In this document: positions 4,431 through 62,520 of the stretch, piece after piece | Position numbering within the stretch: position 1 is the first letter of the stretch | Layout of the letters: each line of letters opens with the position of its first letter | Virus record (IMG/VR): IMGVR_UViG_3300030019_000007 | DNA length: 64,000 nucleotides | Strand: one strand, 5' to 3' | From: a virus | Taxonomy: Duplodnaviria > Heunggongvirae > Uroviricota > Caudoviricetes | Translations under genes and position numbers: made by a program | Notes under the pieces: generated by a model | The model's input: only the letters and a program-made list of their open reading frames with translations | Database searches by the model: none | What the model was told of the DNA's origin: nothing

Positions 4431-5358
4431 TCTGTTTTTGTAATAGAAAATGAATTCTTGAAATTAGATCACTCATATCTTCTTTTGTGTAGTCATATTT
4501 TAGTTCATGCAATTCACAATTATTTTTTATACATTTTTCTTTTTTACTTTTATCTCTTTTTTGAGTAAGTTTAAACTTTTCAATTCCTCCCATAAATTCC
4601 ATACTTTCATAATGTTGTATTCCATTATATTCTATAGCTAAATTTAATATAGGAATGTATATATCAAATCTTTGACCTCTCAACCAAGATAATGCAGCTT
4701 CCCATCTTATTTCCAATTCTGGAAAATTAAGTGCTATAGCATCAAATACTTTAGCTTGTGCTTTTAAACTGCATTTTGGACATCCACTTCCTGCTAAATG
4801 AATAGAAGGAGTTTGCATAAAAATACCATGTTTTTTACATGTAATTTCTAAAGGTACTCCTTTACCTATATAAATAGCATTAGTGTAATCATATTTATTA
4901 TTGTGTTTTAATTTTGCCTGTTTAATAAAAACATCTACACTTTTTGTGTATCGTATAGAACGTTCTTCTGCTGCACATTTTGAACAAGTTGACTTTTTAA
5001 ATAAATGATTTCCAGGGTACGGATTAAATATTCCATGTTTAGAACAAATTACTGTAATTGGAGTTTTGTTATTAATATAATTTACTAAAGAATAATCATA
5101 TAAACCCCCATGCACTTTTTTTGCTTTCTCTATCCATTCTTCTGTAGAAGGTTTATTTTTATTAGAGCATTTACTACATCCATATCCTTTACTATGTTCC
5201 TTTGGTACTTGAAAAAATGATCCATGTTCAGGACATATTATTTCTATAGGTAATTTAGCATTAATATAAATTACTTTTGAGTAATCATATTTATTTTTAT
5301 GGGTGTTATTAGCTTTATCAATAAAATGAAGTTTATTTTCTAGAATTGTGTTTTTCAT
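4426..5358 (-). CDS. homing-endonuclease-like protein: three tandem KYDYS/zinc-ribbon repeats plus a C-terminal Vsr/DUF559-like PD-(D/E)xK domain
   Basis: Three ~95-aa repeats (KYDYSxVxYINxKxPIxIxCxxHGxFxQxPxxHxxGxGCxKC). C-terminus ...ELEIRWEAALSWLRGQRFDIYIPILNLAIEYNGIQH matches the DUF559/Vsr-like endonuclease pattern. Confidence 0.55.
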   Translation of the reverse strand: MKNTILENKLHFIDKANNTHKNKYDYSKVIYINAKLPIEIICPEHGSFFQVPKEHSKGYGCSKCSNKNKPSTEEWIEKAKKVHGGLYDYSLVNYINNKTPITVICSKHGIFNPYPGNHLFKKSTCSKCAAEERSIRYTKSVDVFIKQAKLKHNNKYDYTNAIYIGKGVPLEITCKKHGIFMQTPSIHLAGSGCPKCSLKAQAKVFDAIALNFPELEIRWEAALSWLRGQRFDIYIPILNLAIEYNGIQHYESMEFMGGIEKFKLTQKRDKSKKEKCIKNNCELHELKYDYTKEDMSDLISRIHFLLQKQI

Positions 5359-5417
5359 AAATTTGTAATTTTAATAACTACAAATATAATAAAAAATTCT
5401 TTCTCCTCCAAATAATT

Positions 5418-6047
5418 TTAAATAGAAGTATACTCCTGTTTCTGAGTGTCCTGAGTATGAATAAATTGAAAAACTTTTTTTCCTAATTTTTTATAATCAA
5501 TATCTTTTTTTGATTTAACTGCCTTTTTAGCGTAACTAATTAATACTCTGGTATTTTTACGACTAAATATCCTCTCTCCTCCATCCAATTCCATCTGAGT
5601 ATCTCCATTTTCAGCAAGTACATGCATTTTAGGAGTTTCTTTTCCAATTTCTCCACCTCTCTTATCTTCCTGTATATCTTCCTCTTCATCTTCTTCCTCA
5701 TACTCTTCATCTAGATCTGAGAGATCTACATCATCTCCTGAAGAAATTCCAGAATTAGCATTTACTTCCAAAACATAACTAACTCCAGTTTCTGTAATAG
5801 GTGTTTCATCGTCAGGTTTACCAGTAGTTACTGAAATAACTTCTCCGTCTTCATCTAAGAAAATAATATCTAAAGGAATAGGAGTATTTTTCATCCAGAA
5901 TGCCACTTCTTGTGGAGCATCATAGATAAAAAGCATTCCTTCATCTTCTTGTAGATCATCTACATTCATTAGGCCTTGTTCCTTTTCTTCTTCTGTGTAA
6001 GCTACCTCAACATTATATCGTTTATTGTTAACTGTTACTTCTGTCAT
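5418..6047 (-). CDS. DUF192-domain protein with poly-acidic C-terminal tail
   Basis: GMLFIYDAPQEVAFWMKNTPIPLDIIFLDEDGEV matches the DUF192 (COG1430) core motif. Followed by an EEYEEEDEEEDIQED tract. Confidence 0.5.
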   Translation of the reverse strand: MTEVTVNNKRYNVEVAYTEEEKEQGLMNVDDLQEDEGMLFIYDAPQEVAFWMKNTPIPLDIIFLDEDGEVISVTTGKPDDETPITETGVSYVLEVNANSGISSGDDVDLSDLDEEYEEEDEEEDIQEDKRGGEIGKETPKMHVLAENGDTQMELDGGERIFSRKNTRVLISYAKKAVKSKKDIDYKKLGKKVFQFIHTQDTQKQEYTSI

Positions 6048-7060
6048 TGTATATTTTTTAATAATTTACTTCTAGAATCTTTTGTATTTTTTAATATCTC
6101 TTTAGCAAGAATTTTACCTGCCTCAACCATACTTTCTTCTGTGTTTTCCTTTGACAATTCTTCTAATTTCTTAGTTAACTGTAAATGAAAGATAATTTCA
6201 TCACGTTCTAATTCAGCTGTTTGATCTCCTAAATCTCCACCTTCTCCCATAGCAAGTACAGGAATTCCTTTTCTAGTAATATCAGATTCAGTAATATCTT
6301 CCATATGATTTAATTCTTTATGAAGTTTACCATCGACTATTACATTTTGAGGGGACTCAATAGTTCCTCCTGCTTTAAATTTTCTAAATTCTTTTAGAAA
6401 AGTTGTATTTAAACCTTTTTTACCAACACGAACTTGATTTTGATCTGGATTATTGAAATCCAACATATTTTTATTTGATAGAGTTTGAGAGGCATTTCCT
6501 AAAGCAGCAAATTGATCTTTAGATTGATTTAAGATACCAGAAGTTTTAACTTGCATTGCTTTTAATTTTGCAGTTTGTGCATCTAAATCTTTTCTTCCCC
6601 CAAATAATTTAGCGAATCCTCCAGCATTTCTTTGAGTATTAGTATCAGTCATTTGATCTCCAATATTAGATGCTAATCCAGTGTATCCAGAAGAAGTTCC
6701 TACATTTCCTGCTAAACCTATTTTATCTGCTTTTTTACCAAGTTTTCCACCTAACCAATCTAATCCAGTTAAACTAGCAGAAAGAGCAGTACCTACCCCA
6801 GGTATAGCTCCAATACCTGCAGTAACTGCTCCAAATCCTGCACCAATAGTGTTCATTTTCTTTTGGTAAGCAGTTTTACCTCCAGTATTTCCCATAGCAT
6901 AAGACATAGCCCCTGCTCCAAGAGTATTTATACCATTATCTATTAAAGAAGATGTCTTAGCTCCTTTTGGAGTACCATCTCCAAAGATATTGCCTATACT
7001 GGCAATATCTGAGAGTTTAAATTGGTACGATTGTGGGTTTGATGTTTGTGTATCAGCCAT
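6044..7060 (-). CDS. Gly-rich virion protein (338 aa)
   Basis: ORF track. Gly/Ala/Thr-rich N-half. 4-nt start/stop overlap with the downstream gene. Confidence 0.5.
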   Translation of the reverse strand: MADTQTSNPQSYQFKLSDIASIGNIFGDGTPKGAKTSSLIDNGINTLGAGAMSYAMGNTGGKTAYQKKMNTIGAGFGAVTAGIGAIPGVGTALSASLTGLDWLGGKLGKKADKIGLAGNVGTSSGYTGLASNIGDQMTDTNTQRNAGGFAKLFGGRKDLDAQTAKLKAMQVKTSGILNQSKDQFAALGNASQTLSNKNMLDFNNPDQNQVRVGKKGLNTTFLKEFRKFKAGGTIESPQNVIVDGKLHKELNHMEDITESDITRKGIPVLAMGEGGDLGDQTAELERDEIIFHLQLTKKLEELSKENTEESMVEAGKILAKEILKNTKDSRSKLLKNIQ

Positions 7061-46127: not shown

Positions 46128-47066
46128 TTAAGAAGCATCTTTTAGTATTGTTAAAAATTCTTCATTAGGTAAAGTGCCTTTCATCCTATTGTATACCATT
46201 CTAATAAATTGAAAATTATTTTTGACGTACCCTTTAGTGGAGTCTATTCTATCTATAGAGAGCATGTAATTTTCATCTCCCATAATAAATTCTTTCTTAC
46301 TAAAAGCACATACTTTATTCTGTTTCAAATATTGAGAAATTAAATCCTCCACAGTTAAATTAAATGCTAAATCTCTTTTAGTAGCAGATCCTCTAATACA
46401 ACTAAATTTATATTTAAAATATTTGGCAATATCTATAATTTTTGAATCATGTATTCCAGAAGTACAATGAGTACAACAACTTTTACTTTTCTTATTAAAC
46501 ATAGTTGGATCTGTAGTTCCACATACTTTACATAAATAATTTTTTGGTCTCCCAGTATCATGATATATATATTTTAAATAACCATTTGTATCTCTAACAG
46601 TATTTGATATAGTTCTATTTATATAGTTTTCATTAAATAATTTATCTGTAATACCTCCATAAGGTTCTAAGGATTTTAAAAAATTATTATATCCTAACCA
46701 AGTTGGGCAATTAAGTAATTTCATTTGTTTAGTTTTAGTAAATAAAAGATTGAATTCATTATAGTTAAGATAAATCCTACTTAAATATTCTTTAGTAATT
46801 CTAGGTAAAGGTAAACTAAGAAATTTAGGAGGAGATAGTTCCAAATTTAATAACACTTTATATTGATATACATACCCAGTTAATCTATGTACTTCAATAT
46901 ACTTTTTGTTTTCTAATTCTTTAATACATTTTCTTAAAGTATCATCATTACAACTCATAAGTTTTGATAATTCTTCTGCAGTTTTGTCGTCTCCTACTAT
47001 AGTTCTTAATGCTAGGATTGTTAATAATTCTCGATTGTTCATTTTTAATAATTTTGATGTATGCAA
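46128..47066 (-). CDS. winged-helix plus Cys-cluster plus HNH-like (AP2/HNH_3-type) endonuclease-like protein
   Basis: N-terminal HTH-like region. CKVCG...CCTHC cluster. C-terminal SIDRIDSTKGYVKNNFQFI resembles the HNH_3 motif DHIDxNKxNNxxxNL, with Arg in place of His. Confidence 0.4.
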   Translation of the reverse strand: MHTSKLLKMNNRELLTILALRTIVGDDKTAEELSKLMSCNDDTLRKCIKELENKKYIEVHRLTGYVYQYKVLLNLELSPPKFLSLPLPRITKEYLSRIYLNYNEFNLLFTKTKQMKLLNCPTWLGYNNFLKSLEPYGGITDKLFNENYINRTISNTVRDTNGYLKYIYHDTGRPKNYLCKVCGTTDPTMFNKKSKSCCTHCTSGIHDSKIIDIAKYFKYKFSCIRGSATKRDLAFNLTVEDLISQYLKQNKVCAFSKKEFIMGDENYMLSIDRIDSTKGYVKNNFQFIRMVYNRMKGTLPNEEFLTILKDAS

Positions 47067-50411: not shown

Positions 50412-51011
50412 TCAATTTACTAATAAAGCTATTTCTTTACGCATTTTTTTAACTGGATATTTTAAGTAAACTTGTTGTAATTCTAATCTAGTTATTAAAT
50501 TTTTACGATAATCTCGTAATGCATTTTTACGGAGTCGTTTTCCTGTGTAATACTCATAATTAATACTTTTTGAATCATTTCTTAAAGTATATAAATGATT
50601 ATCAATAATAAGCCTTTTGATTTGGGCTTCAGTTAAATCAATGTATTTTGAAATCTCTTTATAAGATAATTTCTGTACATATAAAATATTAACTTGATCA
50701 ATTAAGTGTTGTGGAAACACTTTAAATCGAGTTTGTTCTTTTTTAGTAATTACAATATTCAAATGTAAATTACTTTTAATAAATTCTTTAATTTCTAAGG
50801 AATAGTTAAACCATTCATTTCGATGCAGTAAATTAATAAACTTAATGTGTAGAGCTGATTCTAAAGTTTCGTCTCCTTCAAGTAATAATATTAGTTCAAC
50901 ATCAAATGGCATTCCACGTGTTATTGCAGAAATTCTTTTTATAGGGTCTTTGTATTTAGTGTAACCAATTTTGATGTAATCTTGTTCTTTAATTTTTATA
51001 AAATATACCAT
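50412..51011 (-). CDS. T5orf172-domain (GIY-YIG superfamily) nuclease
   Basis: VYFIKIKEQDYIKIGYTKYKDPIKRI...ALHIKF...RNEWF matches the T5orf172 / MUG113 pattern. Confidence 0.6.
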   Translation of the reverse strand: MVYFIKIKEQDYIKIGYTKYKDPIKRISAITRGMPFDVELILLLEGDETLESALHIKFINLLHRNEWFNYSLEIKEFIKSNLHLNIVITKKEQTRFKVFPQHLIDQVNILYVQKLSYKEISKYIDLTEAQIKRLIIDNHLYTLRNDSKSINYEYYTGKRLRKNALRDYRKNLITRLELQQVYLKYPVKKMRKEIALLVN

Positions 51012-56771: not shown

Positions 56772-57476
56772 ATGAATACAACTTTTATTTACGCTTTAAT
56801 TGATCCTAATACTCTAGAAACAAGATATGTAGGAAAATCTGATCATCCAAAATCTAGATTAAGTCATCATATAAATGATGCTAAGACTAAAACAAATTGT
56901 CATAGATTAGCCTGGATTAATAGCTTATGGAAATTGAATCAAAAGCCTATTTTACAAATTTTAGAAGAAGTTTCTATTGATGTTTGGGGAGAAAAAGAAA
57001 ACTATTGGATTAGTCAATTTGATAACCTTACTAATATGATTGATGGTGGAAAATTTTGTCCAATGTCAATTCCAGAAATTGTTGAAAAAATGAAAGCCAC
57101 TAAAAAGGCAAATCCACAACAATTTTCTGAAAAAACGAGAGCAAAGTTATCAAAAAGTACACAAAACCGTTGGAATGATGGAACATTAGTGTACAAAAAA
57201 AGATCTAAGGATTCTTATGAAACTCAATCAGAAACTTTAGTTAAGAAATGGGCAAAAAAAACAAAAAATGAAATTCAAAAGATAGGACAAAATATTACTA
57301 AAGGTAAGAATAAATCTATAGATCAATATGATATTGATATGAATTTTATAAAAACTTGGGAATCTATTGGTTCTGTGGAACTTTTCTTCTTTAAAAGAAA
57401 AAAGAGTTTATTAACTAAAGCTATTAAAGCTAATCAATTGTTCCAAGGATTCTATTGGAAATTTGCACAAAAATGA
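56772..57476 (+). CDS. GIY-YIG homing endonuclease
   Basis: FIYALIDPNTLETRYVGKSDHPKSRLSHH carries the GIY..YIG and conserved R..H motifs. Confidence 0.65.
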   Translation: MNTTFIYALIDPNTLETRYVGKSDHPKSRLSHHINDAKTKTNCHRLAWINSLWKLNQKPILQILEEVSIDVWGEKENYWISQFDNLTNMIDGGKFCPMSIPEIVEKMKATKKANPQQFSEKTRAKLSKSTQNRWNDGTLVYKKRSKDSYETQSETLVKKWAKKTKNEIQKIGQNITKGKNKSIDQYDIDMNFIKTWESIGSVELFFFKRKKSLLTKAIKANQLFQGFYWKFAQK

Positions 57477-57673
57477 ATTAAATATATATTTAGGCCATTT
57501 ATCAGTTACTTCTACGATATAACTTAGGCTTCGAAACCTGAGATTAACTACTGATAAAATTCCTTGATCATCACAAAGTGGCTACGTGATAGTTACTTCT
57601 ACAAACATTTGAGCCCCGTTAACGGGCCCGCCAGTTATTACTATCACAATTTCTCATTTTAAAAAAAATAAAC

Positions 57674-59770
57674 ATGAAACTTTCAAAAAATGTTATCTGT
57701 TTTCAAAAAGGGTTTATCCAGTTTAATGATGCTGGAGTAGACAATCGTTCAGTTGCTATGACTGTACAAGCAGAGTTAATGCATTTTGGCTATATGCTAG
57801 ATGACGATGCATTTGTTATGCTTGGTAAAGCTGATAAGGCTGATATTGTTGATTTTCACAATCAAATCATTGATTACCTCAATGATATGACTGGTGGAGG
57901 TAAAACATACAGATCTTTTTATCCCGGTTTTCCCGCCCAAGTTATGGATATGAATGCCACACAAATGTGGTGGGATCAAATTCATAATTACCATACCTAT
58001 GGAAAATGGACTCCATCTGATTGGACAAAAGAGTTTCCAACTGCTTTTGAAACTGTAAAATATAAGGAAATTACCCCAGGAACTCCTGAGAAATTCTTAG
58101 GTATTTTCACAGATCTTTGTAGTGTGAGTCAATCATTAACACCAACTGATCTTGCCACCATCAAATGGTTTGTGAGTACTGATCAAAAGTTAGTTTTTCC
58201 ATCGAGCATTCCTTTTAAGGAAAATCTTTGTACCCTTGCTGGTATGGGACTTGATGTCCCTGTAAAAACTACCACTGATGTTCTTCGTATTGCTGTATTT
58301 ATGTCGGGAGGTGACATCTCATTACCTGCTGTCCCTAAAGCCATGAAAAAGCAAAGAACTACTGTTCGTTATCGCCGTACTATTGAGACTGTAAAGAATC
58401 CTGAGAGGGAAGCTTTTATGTTCAAGAAATTCAAGAGAAGCGAAAGAAAGCATATCCTTGGTCTTCTTGAGAAGACCAATTGCGATGTACGTGACATGAA
58501 ACTGAAAGTTCAGAGATGGCTTCGTTTGGGTGAAATTATTCACCCAGGGGAATACAAATCTGAGTTTCCTAGGGCATATGCAGCCTTTGAGAGGATCAGA
58601 AATCATAAAGTAACCTCTTGGTATGGCCAAGTAGAAGAAGCCTTTAAAATAGGCTTTGGAGAAGGTTTACGTAAGACTGCTGAACGTCCTGGTGAGTTTC
58701 TTAGGAGACTTGATTGGTGGGTGAGAACAGGTGGAAAAGCAAATCTACCTTTAATCTTAGCATCACTTTTTGATATTGCTGTAAAAGCCTCAAACAAAGT
58801 AATCTTCGAAGTGTTTACTCATTTTGAAGGAAGAAATGTTCCCTTGGTTAATCGCACAATATTCATTAAAGGCGCAAGGAAGAAAACTCCTTTACCAAAT
58901 TTAAGTGCATTGCCTGCTGATGTGATTGCTGCTATTCAGGATACTATGTTTTTAGCTTTAAAAGAAAAGATTAAACAACTTGAACCAATTGGTGATTGTT
59001 GGGTTGATCCGGATCTGAAAAGAATCCCTCTTCCAACTAATATGCGTAGTATGAGTGAAGCTATTGTTCCGGTAATTAGAGGTCAAAGAGTTCCTATAGG
59101 TGATGTAACTAAAACCTTAAGAGCTTTTGTCCATATTCCTAATAAATCACGTAGTGAAATGACTATTGACCTCTCTACAATCGTAGTTGGCAATGGTAAA
59201 ACTGTTACAGTAGATTGGCATAATTTAAGAGAGAGAACCGGAATGATTCTACATTCAGGAGATTCTTATGGTAGGGTTGGAAATGTGTCCGAATATATTG
59301 ACTTTGATCTCGTTAAATTGAGAGAAACTGGGTTTAAATGGGCATTGATCCAAGTAAACAACTATAGCAGTTCTCCGGAATTAGTCACAGGTACTATCTT
59401 TGGATTTTGTGAAGTTGAATTTCCTAACGCTAATGCTAAATGGCAACCTGAAACTATCATCCTCTCGATGAAGCCTAAGATTCCCCATAAAGTAAATCTT
59501 CTATTAATAGATTTAGTCAATCTTGACTATATCTTGCTCGACGAAGATGGTGAAGGAAATGGATCGAAACTTAACAATATCTCTTCGCAAGATATCGAGA
59601 AAGTCATTGCTCAGTATTCTGAGTTTCCAAAGTTATCGGTCTATGATCTCCTCCAATGGCATTGCGAAGCTAGAGGTAGATTGGTAAGTAAAGAGACTGC
59701 TAATAAACACTTCCTTTATGAGGATTTTAGTACAAGTTACATAGAAACTCTCAAATACATGGGAATCTAA
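57674..59770 (+). CDS. large protein of unknown function (698 aa) with GC-elevated codon usage
   Basis: Uninterrupted 2.1-kb ORF with no motif recognisable by eye. Flanked on both sides by GIY-YIG endonuclease genes, and the tRNA-like cluster lies downstream. Confidence 0.6.
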   Translation: MKLSKNVICFQKGFIQFNDAGVDNRSVAMTVQAELMHFGYMLDDDAFVMLGKADKADIVDFHNQIIDYLNDMTGGGKTYRSFYPGFPAQVMDMNATQMWWDQIHNYHTYGKWTPSDWTKEFPTAFETVKYKEITPGTPEKFLGIFTDLCSVSQSLTPTDLATIKWFVSTDQKLVFPSSIPFKENLCTLAGMGLDVPVKTTTDVLRIAVFMSGGDISLPAVPKAMKKQRTTVRYRRTIETVKNPEREAFMFKKFKRSERKHILGLLEKTNCDVRDMKLKVQRWLRLGEIIHPGEYKSEFPRAYAAFERIRNHKVTSWYGQVEEAFKIGFGEGLRKTAERPGEFLRRLDWWVRTGGKANLPLILASLFDIAVKASNKVIFEVFTHFEGRNVPLVNRTIFIKGARKKTPLPNLSALPADVIAAIQDTMFLALKEKIKQLEPIGDCWVDPDLKRIPLPTNMRSMSEAIVPVIRGQRVPIGDVTKTLRAFVHIPNKSRSEMTIDLSTIVVGNGKTVTVDWHNLRERTGMILHSGDSYGRVGNVSEYIDFDLVKLRETGFKWALIQVNNYSSSPELVTGTIFGFCEVEFPNANAKWQPETIILSMKPKIPHKVNLLLIDLVNLDYILLDEDGEGNGSKLNNISSQDIEKVIAQYSEFPKLSVYDLLQWHCEARGRLVSKETANKHFLYEDFSTSYIETLKYMGI

Positions 59771-59806: not shown

Positions 59807-60433
59807 ATGAAAACATATGATATGAAAAATGTGGGAATTTATAAATTAATTAGTCCTTCTGGAAAAGTGTATATAGGACAAAGTAAAAATCTTAAAGTAA
59901 GATTTCAAAGGTACAAAAGATTACATTGTAAAGGACAAGTCCATTTATATCATGCCTTACAAAAGTATAGTTTTGACTCTTTTAAAGTAATTACTTTAGT
60001 TTCTTTTTCAGAATATTCTCCATTTATACAGACTATACTGGATAAATTAGAAATTCATTTTATTAAATTATTTAAAAGTAATTTAAATGGATATAATTTA
60101 CAAGGAGGAGGTAAAAATGGGAGTCATGCTAAAGAAACTATACAAAAAATGAAACATGCCCAAAAGGGAAGAATATTTTCAGAACTACATAAAAAACATA
60201 TTTCTGATAGTAAAATAGGTATAAAACATAATTTAACTATAGAAAAAATGTTACAAGTAAAAATTTTACGATCTAAACCAGTGAAGCAATACAGTTTAGA
60301 AATGCATTTCTTAAAGCAGTGGAATACTATTACTGAAGCTTGTCAATTTCTTGGAGTTAATGGAAGAAAAACAATAGCAGCTTGTGCTAGAAAAAATTGC
60401 CCAACAGTCTACGGTTTTATTTGGCAATATTAA
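59807..60433 (+). CDS. GIY-YIG homing endonuclease
   Basis: VGIYKLISPSGKVYIGQSKNLKVRFQRYK matches the GIY-YIG motif. Confidence 0.65.
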   Translation: MKTYDMKNVGIYKLISPSGKVYIGQSKNLKVRFQRYKRLHCKGQVHLYHALQKYSFDSFKVITLVSFSEYSPFIQTILDKLEIHFIKLFKSNLNGYNLQGGGKNGSHAKETIQKMKHAQKGRIFSELHKKHISDSKIGIKHNLTIEKMLQVKILRSKPVKQYSLEMHFLKQWNTITEACQFLGVNGRKTIAACARKNCPTVYGFIWQY

Positions 60434-60504
60434 AAATATACAGGCTGGAGAGATTGATATCTCTTCAGCTTACTTTGGGGGCCATGAGTTAGTTACTTCT
60501 AATT

Positions 60505-60581
60505 AGAGGTGTAGCTCAATTGTCAGAGCACCTTGGTGAAAGCCAAGGAGGTTGTGGGTCAAAGTCCCGCCTCCCCTGCCA
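60505..60581 (+). ncRNA. tRNA-like element 1 (74 nt plus encoded CCA), atypical anticodon hairpin
   Basis: D-arm GCTC-AATTGTCA-GAGC. Hairpin CCTTGG-TGAAAG-CCAAGG is a 6-bp stem with a 6-nt loop (GAA in anticodon position). T-arm-like GTGGG-TCAAAGT-CCCGC. Acceptor pairing AGAGGTG / CTCCCCT has two mismatches. 3' end is GCCA. Confidence 0.3.
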
Positions 60582-60615
60582 AAATTTACTTAGGCAATTT
60601 CCAATTAAATCAAAG

Positions 60616-60687
60616 TTCCCATTAACTCAGTTGGTAGAGTACTCCAAAGTAAGGGAGGAGTCACAGGTTCGAGCCCTGTATGGGTAC
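60616..60687 (+). tRNA. tRNA-like gene 2 (72 nt), canonical D and T arms but aberrant anticodon arm
   Basis: Acceptor TTCCCAT / ATGGGTA. D-arm ACTC-AGTTGGTA-GAGT. T-arm ACAGG-TTCGAGC-CCTGT. The 27-43 region CTCCAAAGTAAGGGAGG cannot form a 5-bp stem with a 7-nt loop. Confidence 0.45.
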
Positions 60688-60717
60688 CAGTATTTTACAA
60701 ACCAATAAAAATAAGTA

Positions 60718-60951
60718 ATGAGTAAATCAAGTAAAGCAGTCTCAAAATTAAAAAGATTGGCCGCTAAAAGAGCCAGAAGAGCCACAAATCGTGCTCATTA
60801 TCAGGAATTAGCTCGTACTGGGCAAAACAGTAAAAGTAAAAGAGCATTGAATGCCAATTCAAAACGCAAAAAAGTTAATGTTTTTGGTCATTCCGCAGAA
60901 CCTTGTGGTAATATAGGTTGTATGAAATGTAACCCAAGGGTTGCAGCATAA
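60718..60951 (+). CDS. small highly basic protein with C-terminal Cys cluster (77 aa)
   Basis: KRLAAKRARRATNRAHYQELARTGQNSKSKRALNANSKRKK...PCGNIGCMKCNP. Embedded between tRNA-like genes. Confidence 0.45.
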   Translation: MSKSSKAVSKLKRLAAKRARRATNRAHYQELARTGQNSKSKRALNANSKRKKVNVFGHSAEPCGNIGCMKCNPRVAA

Positions 60952-60976
60952 AATATTTATGTGAGAATAAAAAAAG

Positions 60977-61120
60977 ACTCTCTTAGCTCAGTGGGTTAGA
61001 GTAGTAGGTAGACCTACCATCGAAGATATGTTGATTGAAATCCCAAAGTACAAGGGACTAGACAGACAATAGATGCGGACCAGAAGTCCGTTGTCCCAGG
61101 TTCGAATCCTGGAGGGAGTC
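60977..61120 (+). ncRNA. tRNA-like RNA 3 (144 nt): canonical acceptor, D and T arms with an insertion of about 75 nt replacing the anticodon arm
   Basis: Acceptor ACTCTCT (60977-83) pairs with AGGGAGT (61113-19). D-arm GCTC-AGTGGGTTA-GAGT. T-arm CCAGG-TTCGAAT-CCTGG (61096-61112). Tight hairpin GTAGG-TAGA-CCTAC sits where the anticodon arm should be. Confidence 0.4.
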
Positions 61121-61195
61121 CTTAATCGGCCACATATAAGTTACTTCTAAAATTTCTATATTTAACTTACTTGTATAATTTCCGATTTTTAAATG

Positions 61196-61316
61196 AAGGT
61201 TGTCGTCTAACGGTCAGGATACGAGCTTGTTTCTCTATGACAATTTCATTCCATGCTACGTTTTAGATACTTCTACTATGGCGCTCGGGGTTTGGGTTCG
61301 ATTCCCAACAACCTTC
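61196..61316 (+). ncRNA. tRNA-like RNA 4 (121 nt): acceptor and T arm canonical, anticodon-stem-like helix enclosing an insert of about 57 nt
   Basis: Acceptor AAGGTTG / CAACCTT. T-arm TTGGG-TTCGATT-CCCAA (61292-61308). Helix CGAGC...GCTCG encloses nested hairpins. Short D region with GG. Confidence 0.4.
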
Positions 61317-61356
61317 CTATTAGACAAAACAGTCTAATTAATTAACATTTTTCAAC

Positions 61357-61806
61357 ATGGAAGTAAAAACTCCTTTAACAAAAGAACAAATAATCGACGC
61401 ATTATTTGCCCAGCTAGAATTAAAAAAAGCTGAAGTTGCCCTTGCAAACAAACCAGTATACATTACAGGTGGTTCATTTCGGTACAGTGAAGGTATATCT
61501 AATCAACTGGATATCACCACAGCTCGTGAAGAAAGAAAACTTATTGAAGTAGTTGGATTCTTGAAAGAGAGATCCAGATCATATGCTGAAGCTGCTGCAG
61601 AATTAGGTTGTGATGCCAAGTTTACTTGGTTAGGTTTCTCTCCGGAGGAATGGCAGGCTGATTGTCAGACGCGTATAAATGTTCTGCAAATTGCTAAGAA
61701 AAAATCAGAGTTGGCTGCTCTCGAAATCCGTGTTAACAAGGTCGTACCTCAAGACATCCGTGATGCTCGTGAACTTGCTGCTTTGCAGAGAGAACTTGGC
61801 GCCTAA
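61357..61806 (+). CDS. hypothetical protein (149 aa), GC-elevated codon usage
   Basis: ORF track. Noticeably GC-richer than the phage backbone. Followed by its own terminator. Confidence 0.5.
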   Translation: MEVKTPLTKEQIIDALFAQLELKKAEVALANKPVYITGGSFRYSEGISNQLDITTAREERKLIEVVGFLKERSRSYAEAAAELGCDAKFTWLGFSPEEWQADCQTRINVLQIAKKKSELAALEIRVNKVVPQDIRDARELAALQRELGA

Positions 61807-62113: not shown

Positions 62114-62520
62114 CTTTACAAGTAATACTCTACTTGATTACGCTCACCTGAAGTTTATTCTATTGCATTCGTACTATGCTGTCCGATATCGAGATAGTAC
62201 AAACTTAATGGCCCTAAAATGCGAGTATACATTCTATGGTCATTATTATAAAACGGAGATAGCACTTGGGTGCATTTGAGTACACACCTCAGAAGGTAAG
62301 GTTCAAATCCTCGATCCCCGACTATATTGATTTAGAATATGAATCATTTTCTAAATGCATCGCTAAAACTTTACAATCATAAAGTTCTTTCTCAAGTTCT
62401 TTGATTTTTTCAAGGAGTTGTTCATTTTCTTCTACTAAAAGAAGAATCTTCTGGAATAAGTTAGTTTGCTTGTTCATACGTAAATTTTAAAAATAAACAA
62501 AGATACAAAATTAAATTAAC

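Follow-up and report, generated by a model that had tools for sequence, protein, structure and literature searches.

At positions 60505 to 61316 of the 64,000-nucleotide (nt) stretch of DNA analysed here (hereafter the window), taken from the tailed phage (Caudoviricetes) record IMGVR_UViG_3300030019_000007 of IMG/VR, four tRNA-shaped genes lie one after another on the + strand and none of them (0/4) has a canonical anticodon arm. A first-pass annotation, made by folding the sequence by hand, had described them in these terms; Rfam and ARAGORN now bear it out, all four genes lying within 1 nt of the coordinates first given, with hand folds that were essentially right, and ARAGORN did not return ordinary 7-nt anticodon loops for all four. 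By default ARAGORN finds zero tRNAs in the whole window and Rfam at gathering settings reports element 2 alone. A permissive scan of 60400-61400 with the Rfam tRNA model (RF00005, gathering threshold 29 bits) matched three of the genes, with E-values of 7e-8 to 5e-6 over this 1 kb: element 4 (61196-61316) reached 44.0 bits, 52 nt being treated as an insertion in its anticodon loop, and elements 1 (60505-60578) and 2 (60616-60687) reached 39.1 and 37.4 bits, respectively. These three thus exceed the threshold, and element 3 was recovered just by the intron search of ARAGORN (60977-61121), which also recovers element 4, or once its insert is deleted. At relaxed stringency, ARAGORN reports elements 1 and 2 as tRNAs with 8-nt loops and the 4-base anticodons GAAA and AGUA. 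The tRNA likeness of the four genes is far beyond chance. As encoded, none of the four RNAs is able to decode: none of them combines a 5-bp anticodon stem and an open loop of 7 nt with U33 and a purine at position 37, and element 4 does so only after a 49-nt deletion. Elements 2, 3 and 4 also share a G-1:C73 pair, which gives them 8-bp acceptor stems. Because default annotation yields zero tRNAs in the window, the tRNA content of such phages is systematically under-counted.

Element 4 (61195-61316, +; 44.0 bits) has its G-1 at 61195 and its C73 at 61316. The first exon ends with CGAGC-UUGU at 61230 and the second opens with GGC-GCUCG at 61280; the insert between them (61231-61279, +) is therefore 49 nt long and sits inside the anticodon loop, where the first-pass annotation had rightly seen an insert, put at about 57 nt and in place of the arm. 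This insert is composed of an AT-rich 5' part with a weak hairpin (UUGUU..GACAA), a copy of a 22-nt motif (61254-61275, see below) and 4 further nt. At top stringency, ARAGORN accepts only deletions of exactly 49 nt, with His GUG (UUGU^GGC), His AUG or Asn GUU as the outcome, and GUG is the sole outcome consistent with G-1:C73. The deletion then gives the loop UUGUGGC together with G-1:C73, the features of a bacterial tRNA-His. An orthologue in the related locus L034 (related loci carry L numbers throughout), whose flanking protein is 80% identical, has all stems identical and reads CTATGGGT at the 3' junction, where the window has CTATGGC; TTGT+GGT still gives a GUG loop. Element 4 appears to be a tRNA-His(GUG) gene interrupted in its anticodon, and the idea of tRNAs with unusually short introns, one of several offered at first, holds for this gene, since removal of 49 nt restores a tRNA-His(GUG). 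No canonical intrinsic terminator is predicted inside element 4 or on the + strand of the window copy, and the terminator part of a cassette reading was dropped for this copy for that reason. Directly downstream lies an open reading frame (ORF) of 149 amino acids (aa) (61357-61806, +; phrog_2574), the likely target of the promoter-like motif within element 4. Homologues of the 149-aa ORF in other phages likewise have interrupted tRNAs upstream; a search of IMG/VR by peptide patterns of this ORF returned no relatives. In L042 a 148-aa ORF (5016-5462), alike by position, follows an interrupted tRNA in the same manner and is directly followed by a gene for the RNA ligase RtcB (5514-6698). In size and position this ORF recalls archease, the RtcB cofactor, but no Pfam match was obtained.

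The motif in the insert of element 4 has the form GGCTAY-N8-TACTTCTA, that is, two blocks at a fixed spacing, to which a third block, TTAATTTCYG, is at times added upstream. A position weight matrix (PWM) built from 19 instances and applied to both strands of the window with a cut at 14 bits found five sites, all on the + strand and either intergenic or in the insert, and no others. A tandem pair precedes the ORF of a 698-aa protein: the first copy (57493-57514; GGCCAT-N8-TACTTCTA) has a PWM score of 31.6 and the second (57580-57601; 31.2) stands 72 nt upstream of that ORF. The third (60480-60501; 28.8) ends 3 nt before element 1, the fourth (61128-61149), which is the best of the window at 35.1, lies between elements 3 and 4 and has the same position in L017 (7765) and L023 (163), and the fifth (61254-61275; TGCTAC-N8-TACTTCTA; 18.2) is the copy in element 4, ending 4 nt before exon 2. 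The same placements recur in relatives. Protein genes such as the 698-aa ORF and its L001 and L017 homologues are preceded by the motif at a distance of 50-100 nt, motif and leader being found at 5927 in L001 and at 2081 in L017; the motif ends 3-4 nt upstream of 3/3 element-1 orthologues (those at L017 7520 and L021 1462 included), and a copy directly follows element 3 and its orthologues. Its spacers are constant in length and variable in sequence, the pattern expected of a DNA signal recognised by a protein, and as the element-1 genes leave no room for any other promoter, we read the motif as a putative phage-specific promoter. In the crAss-like phage phi14:2, a tripartite middle-promoter motif is often found upstream of tRNA genes (10.1101/2020.03.07.982082).

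A few observations may be added on the surroundings of this motif. The sequence AATTTCC(G/A)A occurs at 60598-60604 and 61180-61186, as well as in L017, L022, L025 and L036, 6-17 nt upstream of several tRNA-like genes, and the related TTAATTTCYG stands 7 nt upstream of GGCTAT within many inserts; the two may represent a third promoter block or a host-type promoter box. A palindromic hairpin, GAGCCCCGTTAACGGGCCC (57612-57632), in the 5' leader of the 698-aa ORF is kept together with the motif in L017 (around 2110-2130) and could be an operator or an RNA stability element. Finally, L021 has an array in which at least six copies of the motif are packed into 1.1 kb, and a small RNA-like unit comes after every one of them.

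Element 1 (60505-60581, +) has acceptor, D and T arms, G73 and an encoded CCA (39.1 bits against the Rfam tRNA model), with two mismatches in the acceptor stem. Its anticodon arm is replaced by CCUUGGU-GAAA-GCCAAGG, a stem of 6-7 bp capped by a GNRA tetraloop, and the loop is closed in the minimum-free-energy (MFE) fold; this describes the arm better than the 6-bp stem with a 6-nt loop first annotated. Orthologues were found in L017 (7520-7596) and L021 (1462-1537), where the flanking protein is 76% and 56% identical to that of the window, respectively. Over the 23 proposed pairs of the three-sequence alignment, 93% of the cells are paired, against 36-58% in slid controls, and compensatory double changes are seen at 11/23 pairs. 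The L017 arm reads CCGUAGC-GAAA-GCUAGGG, so that the pair closing the GAAA is U.G in the window and C-G in L017; this change and the closed MFE folds are better explained by a helix with a GNRA cap than by an open loop containing U33. With a covariance model of the family, its three members score 89-94 bits and all other tRNAs at most 44 bits, and G73 is kept in 3/3 members, with CCA or UCA. As judged from fold and covariation, element 1 would be a conserved, non-decoding tRNA mimic.

Element 3 (60976-61120, +) encodes a 144-nt RNA with G-1:C73, a 71-nt insert (61004-61074) at position 26/27 and a hairpin at 61075-61091. In an exhaustive deletion scan the best deletion was of 70-71 nt directly after the D arm and left a hairpin, GCGGA-CCAGAAG-TCCGT, a 4-nt variable loop and a normal T arm. 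The insert of about 75 nt described at first is thus real, 71 nt in length, and it does not replace the arm: it sits between the D arm and an intact hairpin. A 144-nt orthologue is present in L023 (13-156), in which the hairpin arm is identical even though the flanking protein is only 65% identical. Compared between these two sequences, the insert retains the blocks CATCGA, GTTGNTTGAAATC and ACTAGACANACAATAGAT, with a different hairpin sequence at the same insert position, and the T stem shows a compensatory change. Over 72 nt, the body of element 3 without its insert shows 78% identity to phage genes annotated as tRNA-Arg(tct), of which the canonical loop CTTCTAA has become CCAGAAG. The latter matches the canonical arm at 5/7 loop positions in reverse complement and at 2/7 in direct orientation, suggesting that the hairpin was flipped. 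Since it has C33 and a Watson-Crick C32-G38 pair, with a loop predicted to close to 5 nt, element 3 would not decode even without the insert. We thus regard it as a probable conserved, non-decoding mimic derived from tRNA-Arg(UCU).

The motif core GTTACTTCTA, present at 60491-60501, 61139-61149 and 61265-61275, has a 6-nt Watson-Crick complement in the loop of element 2 (60646-60653, AAAGUAAG) as well as in that of element 3 (61080-61087, CCAGAAGU): AAGUAA pairs with TTACTT (element 2) and AGAAGU with ACTTCT (element 3). The chance of such a complement is about 0.006-0.015 per loop, for an observation made post hoc. The core also includes CTTCTAA, a sequence identical to the anticodon loop of tRNA-Arg(UCU). 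These matches may stem from pairing between RNAs, from mimicry of the promoter or from shared descent.

Element 2 (60615-60687, +; 37.4 bits) has G-1:C73, an anticodon stem of 4 bp (plus A.G) and an 8-nt loop, AAAGUAAG, which carries A at position 33 instead of U33 and is read as anticodon (agta) by ARAGORN. No orthologue of it was found. In a comparison of 12 variants of the same phage there is no substitution (0) in 60961-61357, which comprises elements 3 and 4; C60675A, present in 4/12 variants, abolishes the G53:C61 pair of element 2, and in L005 a 123-nt microhomology deletion (60548-60670) fuses the beginning of element 1 with the end of element 2. Polymorphism in elements 1/2 was found in L005, L002, L003, L007 and L011. 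Element 2 shows signs of decay and may be a degenerating paralogue. The motif, the G-1:C73 pair, the tRNA-Arg origin of element 3 and the polymorphisms of element 2 are all absent from the first-pass annotation.

Interrupted tRNA genes are not confined to the window. Through relatives of the 149-aa ORF, interrupted tRNAs associated with the motif were found in L017 (7631-7757, 7840-7960), L022 (7764-7881), L025/L026, L030/L031, L034 and L036 (two in tandem), the motif lying inside the inserts of L017b, L017c, L022d, L025, L030, L034 and the two L036 genes. A wider set of 80 IMG/VR loci, gathered through the 698-aa protein, contains 480 tRNA genes according to default ARAGORN, 34 of them with inserts; about 12 distinct genes of this set have the TTACTTCT core at the 3' end of the insert, in loci whose marker protein is 27-48% identical to that of the window. 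This brings the interrupted tRNA genes with a motif-bearing insert to about 20 in all in the loci examined. The inserts occupy positions 26/27 (L041 family), 28/29 (L050, L022), 31/32 (L062), the anticodon itself (element 4) and 37/38 (L064). Where the tRNA body is recognisable, the joined exons rebuild anticodons matching its isotype, namely His GUG with G-1:C73, Leu UAG (two class II bodies), Asn GUU (TTAGG-CTGTTAA-CCTCG), Tyr GUA and Arg UCU. In the L041/L046/L054/L063 family, in which the inserts are made of conserved blocks and variable spacers of fixed length, the acceptor stem is 100% paired across a 53-nt insert with compensatory changes at 3/7 pairs, and the T stem has them at 2/5, with none in slid controls. 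This covariation across the insert argues that the interrupted genes are under selection to fold as tRNAs. In L064 (6328-6457) and L065/L066, both ends of the insert offer an anticodon-loop-like heptamer (5' CTGTAAT, Tyr, vs 3' TTGAAAA, Phe, or ATTTGGA). A partial motif core (TTACT or TTCAC) stands at the start of many inserts, a hint that they arose by duplication.

The G-1:C73 pair is the established identity rule of histidyl-tRNA synthetase (HisRS). In the close relatives it is found in 9 aberrant or interrupted genes and in none (0) of about 27 canonical tRNAs, and in the wider IMG/VR set 4/308 canonical tRNAs carry it, all genuine tRNA-His. Its enrichment in the aberrant genes is real, not universal, and the genes that carry it are possibly recognised by HisRS.

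The 698-aa protein (57674-59770, +) encoded upstream of the cluster is predicted to fold into an N-terminal helical domain resembling TROVE (Ro60) and a C-terminal TerD-like beta-sandwich. More than 900 homologues, with a typical identity of 47-50%, were found on contigs of 150-400 kb, and the protein is encoded by a core gene of a large clade of tRNA-rich phages; its homologues lie within tRNA arrays. The protein has no sequence match in Pfam, among annotated PHROGs or in PDB, and a Pfam search of 25 family members returned no match (TROVE, PF05731). The likeness comes from an alignment-based AlphaFold2 (AF2) model (pLDDT 81, pTM 0.70), which resembles 2nvo and 1yvp over 237-270 residues with modest scores; among viral models, Foldseek returned a "TROVE domain-containing protein" of a crAss-like phage (E 3e-3, probability 1.0) as well as full-length two-domain relatives. 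We take the TROVE assignment of the N-terminal domain as a supported lead from predicted structure, and not as a demonstration. In L001 (5998-9073) and L017 (2176-5256) an ORF of 258-279 aa is inserted in the 698-aa gene, leaving one part of about 156-159 aa and another of 540 aa; it could be a homing-endonuclease, intron or intein insertion.

The gene order around these homologues is also suggestive. Rhodococcus phage Weasels2 has five tRNA genes, then the homologue and, less than 200 nt on, a match to the Y RNA family YrlA (26.4 bits, E 0.003), with an annotated RtcB 3 kb away. In L042, which belongs to the clade of the window, the homologue is followed by five copies of the motif, by an interrupted tRNA that contains a sixth, by the 148-aa ORF and by RtcB, in this order, and in L021 a YrlA-like match (39.9 bits) comes right after a motif copy. 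Sub-threshold YrlA-like permuted tRNA-like domains or full transfer-messenger RNA (tmRNA) genes are seen in relatives at L021 1331-1394 and 6427-6761, L022 32-405 and L121 7294-7361 (tmRNAs 77.9-89.9 bits, L021 and L022). Within the window, YrlA (RF02553) has no match at E<=10 in 60400-61400, and each of the four elements has the collinear layout of a tRNA, both termini lying in the acceptor stem, which is not the permuted topology of YrlA. The initial proposal of Y-RNA/YrlA-like RNAs is therefore only partly retained: it gains from the TROVE-like predicted fold next door and from the YrlA-like matches in L021 and Weasels2, and loses in that no window element matches YrlA or its topology. That of tRNA mimics fits the conserved non-decoding folds of elements 1 and 3, element 4 fitting a short intron instead.

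We propose that the locus is a phage Ro/Y-RNA-like module accompanied by promoter-carrying tRNA introns, a reading to which we give a probability of about 0.5. Folds, covariation, motif distribution, isotype-consistent exon junctions, fold similarity and gene linkage are the observations behind it, and from them we infer promoter activity, a protein-RNA partnership and any splicing. The module would be made of the TROVE-TerD-like 698-aa protein, the phage-specific promoter-like signal and several tRNA-derived genes driven by that signal. In elements 1 and 3, the L-shape formed by acceptor, T and D arms would allow RNase P, RNase Z and the CCA-adding enzyme to process and stabilise RNAs with closed anticodon loops (a GAAA tetraloop in one; a 5-nt loop and a 71-nt extra domain in the other), and these RNAs may serve the Ro-like protein as substrates or as Y-RNA-like partners in the quality control or repair of tRNAs. 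The 49-nt cassette of element 4 would be a copy of the phage promoter that probably fires into the downstream 149-aa operon, and in a read-through transcript the cassette could loop out and leave the tRNA fold in place. For element 4 to be able to decode, excision of the cassette and ligation of the halves would be required, for which an RtcB-type ligase is the candidate, being encoded nearby in two related phages (L042, Weasels2). It is tempting to extend this proposal to a clade-wide tRNA-centred ribonucleoprotein system, in which TROVE-TerD proteins act with Y-RNA-like partners and promoter-cassette introns are removed by a protein-based pathway of cutting and RtcB ligation, but we hold this larger version only tentatively and think it rather doubtful. 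If true, it would be the first non-ribozyme tRNA splicing described for bacteria or their viruses and would tie tRNA maturation to the transcriptional programme of the infection.

Several results weigh against our proposal. In L046/L054/L063 the first bases of the anticodon stem fall within the motif, so that an internal transcript could not carry an intact arm. G-1:C73 is present in just 2/12 interrupted genes of the wider IMG/VR set. The YrlA-like matches of L021 (39.9 bits) and Weasels2 (26.4 bits) fall below the gathering score of RF02553 (69 bits) and lie outside the window. No RtcB, RNA ligase, kinase or splicing endonuclease was found in the 64-kb window by domain searches of about 25 ORFs, and RtcB occurs in only 1 of about 80 related loci. 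At the inferred junctions of 11 genes no bulge-helix-bulge (BHB) motif was found, BHB-like configurations occurring at the frequency seen in shuffled sequences. Lastly, the L005 deletion removes parts of elements 1 and 2, both of which must be dispensable at least in some settings.

Some of these facts would be expected if the cluster consisted of relics, that is, tRNA pseudogenes hit by a mobile or duplicating terminator-promoter cassette or bearing homing-endonuclease scars, in which loop indels reflect decay and only the promoters matter; the PeSL elements of T4 offer a parallel for such a cassette. The single-nucleotide polymorphism (SNP) that breaks the T stem of element 2 in 4 variants, the 123-nt deletion fusing elements 1 and 2 in L005 and the two acceptor mismatches of element 1 all look like decay, GIY-YIG and HNH endonuclease genes flank or replace tRNA-like genes, and short direct repeats flank many inserts. 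We nevertheless find this explanation unlikely: compensatory changes keep the acceptor and T stems paired both in the element-1 family and across inserts, elements 3 and 4 are free of SNPs in the 12 strain variants, the arm of element 3 is identical in a phage with a 65%-identical flanking protein, and exon junctions repeatedly rebuild anticodons that fit the isotype of the body. A somewhat less probable possibility is that the insert is the border between two transcription units, the 5' half ending at a hairpin and U-rich tract and the 3' half starting at the internal promoter, with the two RNAs annealing through acceptor and anticodon stems before an RNA ligase seals them. The motif does end 4 nt before GGC-GCUCG in element 4, a spacing like that before the uninterrupted tRNA-like genes, hairpins and then U-rich tracts precede it in L017b and L017c, the acceptor covariation fits pairing in cis or in trans, and RtcB is nearby in L042 and Weasels2. 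Such split genes are however difficult to reconcile with the lack of a predicted + strand terminator in the window copy, with the overlap of motif and anticodon stem in L046/L054/L063, which would deprive the 3' transcript of part of the stem, and with the absence of complementary leader and trailer sequences of the kind seen in Nanoarchaeum. A triphosphate 5' end, moreover, is not an RtcB substrate.

The tRNA-shaped RNAs could also work without the 698-aa protein, as decoys or antidotes that soak up host tRNA-targeting nucleases or toxins, or substitute resistantly against them, as first proposed for anticodon nucleases; phage tRNAs that evade such nucleases are known. Closed or altered anticodon loops would resist cleavage in the loop and dedicated, strong promoter-like signals would drive the RNAs, but a mimic that lacks an anticodon loop would hardly lure nucleases specific for that loop, neither defence nor anti-defence genes were identified and the promoter cassette inside tRNA genes is left unexplained; the analysis gave no direct evidence for decoys against anticodon nucleases, and we judge the whole idea improbable. 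The 4-base anticodons called by ARAGORN (GAAA and AGUA) and the U33-GAA-A37 sequence of 2/3 element-1 orthologues would be those of natural quadruplet-decoding (+1 frameshift suppressor) tRNAs with 8-nt loops. This we find very hard to believe, because the loop of element 1 is predicted to close to a GAAA tetraloop, with a closing pair that covaries (U.G/C-G) and a U33 that becomes C in L017a, because element 2 lacks U33 and is decaying, and because the standard frame stays open throughout the long ORFs of the window. The standard code also reads through these long ORFs, which makes an alternative genetic code or a suppressor-tRNA role unlikely too.

Known classes of intron do not accommodate the inserts. 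Group I introns were rejected, as the first-pass annotation had argued on length: at 49 and 71 nt the inserts compare with about 200 nt or more for the catalytic core (P3-P9), and neither group I introns nor small self-cleaving ribozyme families have an Rfam match at E<=10 in 60400-61400. To our knowledge, bacterial and phage tRNA genes are generally held to be uninterrupted save for self-splicing group I introns, the sole reported exception being the introns of Lak phages. These megaphages, large phages of Bacteroidota, have non-group-I tRNA introns of 79-114 nt in anticodon loops, which are highly conserved, overlooked by bacterial tRNA finders and without a known splicing mechanism (Devoto et al. 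2019, PMC6784885); each contains its own mini-tRNA-like acceptor and T-arm helix (GGTTCGAWTCC) and lies near 37/38 (Table S6, PMC6784885). The Lak phages and those described here thus have in common short, non-group-I inserts in the tRNA genes of large phages. Unlike the Lak introns, the present inserts are 46-71 nt long, carry the promoter-like motif, occupy positions 26/27, 28/29, 31/32, 35/36 and 37/38 and have no evident sequence similarity to them; no Lak-type T-arm-like element was found in the inserts of the window.

Archaeal BHB introns and split tRNAs (Nanoarchaeum, Caldivirga) also use canonical and non-canonical positions, with acceptor pairing to hold the halves and RtcB as the ligase; they differ in that here no BHB is found at the junctions, the host is bacterial, the halves are adjacent in one gene and there is no complementary leader or trailer. 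A parallel to the module as a whole is bacterial Ro60 (Rsr) with YrlA (rsr-yrlBA-rtcBA), where an RNA-binding ring protein stands beside tRNA-mimicking non-coding RNAs and RtcB; here the protein has a TROVE-like predicted fold without a sequence-level TROVE match, its second domain is TerD-like and not vWA, and the RNAs end at the acceptor stem whereas YrlA is a permuted tRNA-like domain on a Ro-binding stem. In phage T4, rnaC and rnaD (species 1 and 2) are stable RNAs of 139 and 119 nt, sizes near those of elements 3 and 4, in a tRNA cluster beside the GIY-YIG gene segB. A kinship was rejected since size and context are shared and architecture is not: rnaC has a T arm and an acceptor-like stem only and rnaD neither, and both lack a D arm and a match to the tRNA model. 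T4 also has group I introns with embedded promoters, and T4-type PeSL promoter/stem-loop cassettes spread between genes and drive genome shuffling. As in those cases, a phage regulatory cassette here lies within introns or between genes; the differences are the tRNA host gene, the absence of ribozyme or intron ORF and the size of about 50 nt. We found no prior description in the literature on split tRNAs, promoter-bearing tRNAs and tRNA mimics in phages. The present data extend interrupted tRNAs to a large, environmentally widespread clade of tRNA-rich phages. They give the inserts a recognisable content, a conserved promoter-like signal, in genes that selection appears to keep foldable as tRNAs, and they place interrupted tRNAs in physical linkage with a candidate Ro60-like protein, Y-RNA-like tRNA mimics and RtcB.

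The window encodes a portal protein and a large terminase (TerL). By tblastn, TerL is closest to its counterparts in uncultured gut phages (about 40% identity); next come those of crAss-like phages infecting Bacteroides, Flavobacterium, Azobacteroides and Cellulophaga. The phage is thus a large, distantly crAss-like phage of roughly 148 kb, and its host is probably a member of the Bacteroidota. An archaeal host, raised by the non-canonical insert positions, was rejected because the TerL kin are crAss-like phages of Bacteroides, Flavobacterium and Cellulophaga, and is also disfavoured by lipobox-type signal peptides read in the ORFs of the window. The phage has no close relative in GenBank; metagenomes from peat, bog and fen contain it at about 99% identity, one of the contigs being 148 kb long. 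The scan of a single metagenome returned only the same phage and a chance match in a high-GC bacterial gene, and exact-match probes with pieces of the tRNAs had no matches in IMG/VR. The GC shift described for the tRNA-like island is present and mild (0.37-0.385 vs about 0.31 for the window). L001 contains no tRNAs.

A weak, degenerate tRNA-like remnant lies at 62254-62324 (+), detected by ARAGORN at relaxed threshold only and scoring 19.5 bits with model R1, with no Rfam match; it sits where L017, L023 and L028 hold an intact tRNA after a 79-80-aa gene. Within a 77-aa basic ORF (60718-60951), nine clustered substitutions at 60763-60775 (GCT..AGAG.CA to CTA..CAGC.AT) divide the variants into two haplotype groups, which resembles the replacement of a patch or the flipping of a segment more than a series of independent SNPs. 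Free-standing endonuclease-like genes surround the module at 56772-57476 (+), 59807-60433 (+), 50412-51011 (-) and 46128-47066 (-); two are of the GIY-YIG type, one is T5orf172/MUG113 and one HNH/EndoVII-like, and both L023 and L028 have an HNH gene where the window has element 4. In the second-closest GenBank relative by TerL, the terminase gene is in three pieces over 4.3 kb (MT835539.1, 30009-34280), indicating that introns or inteins are present in this phage lineage.

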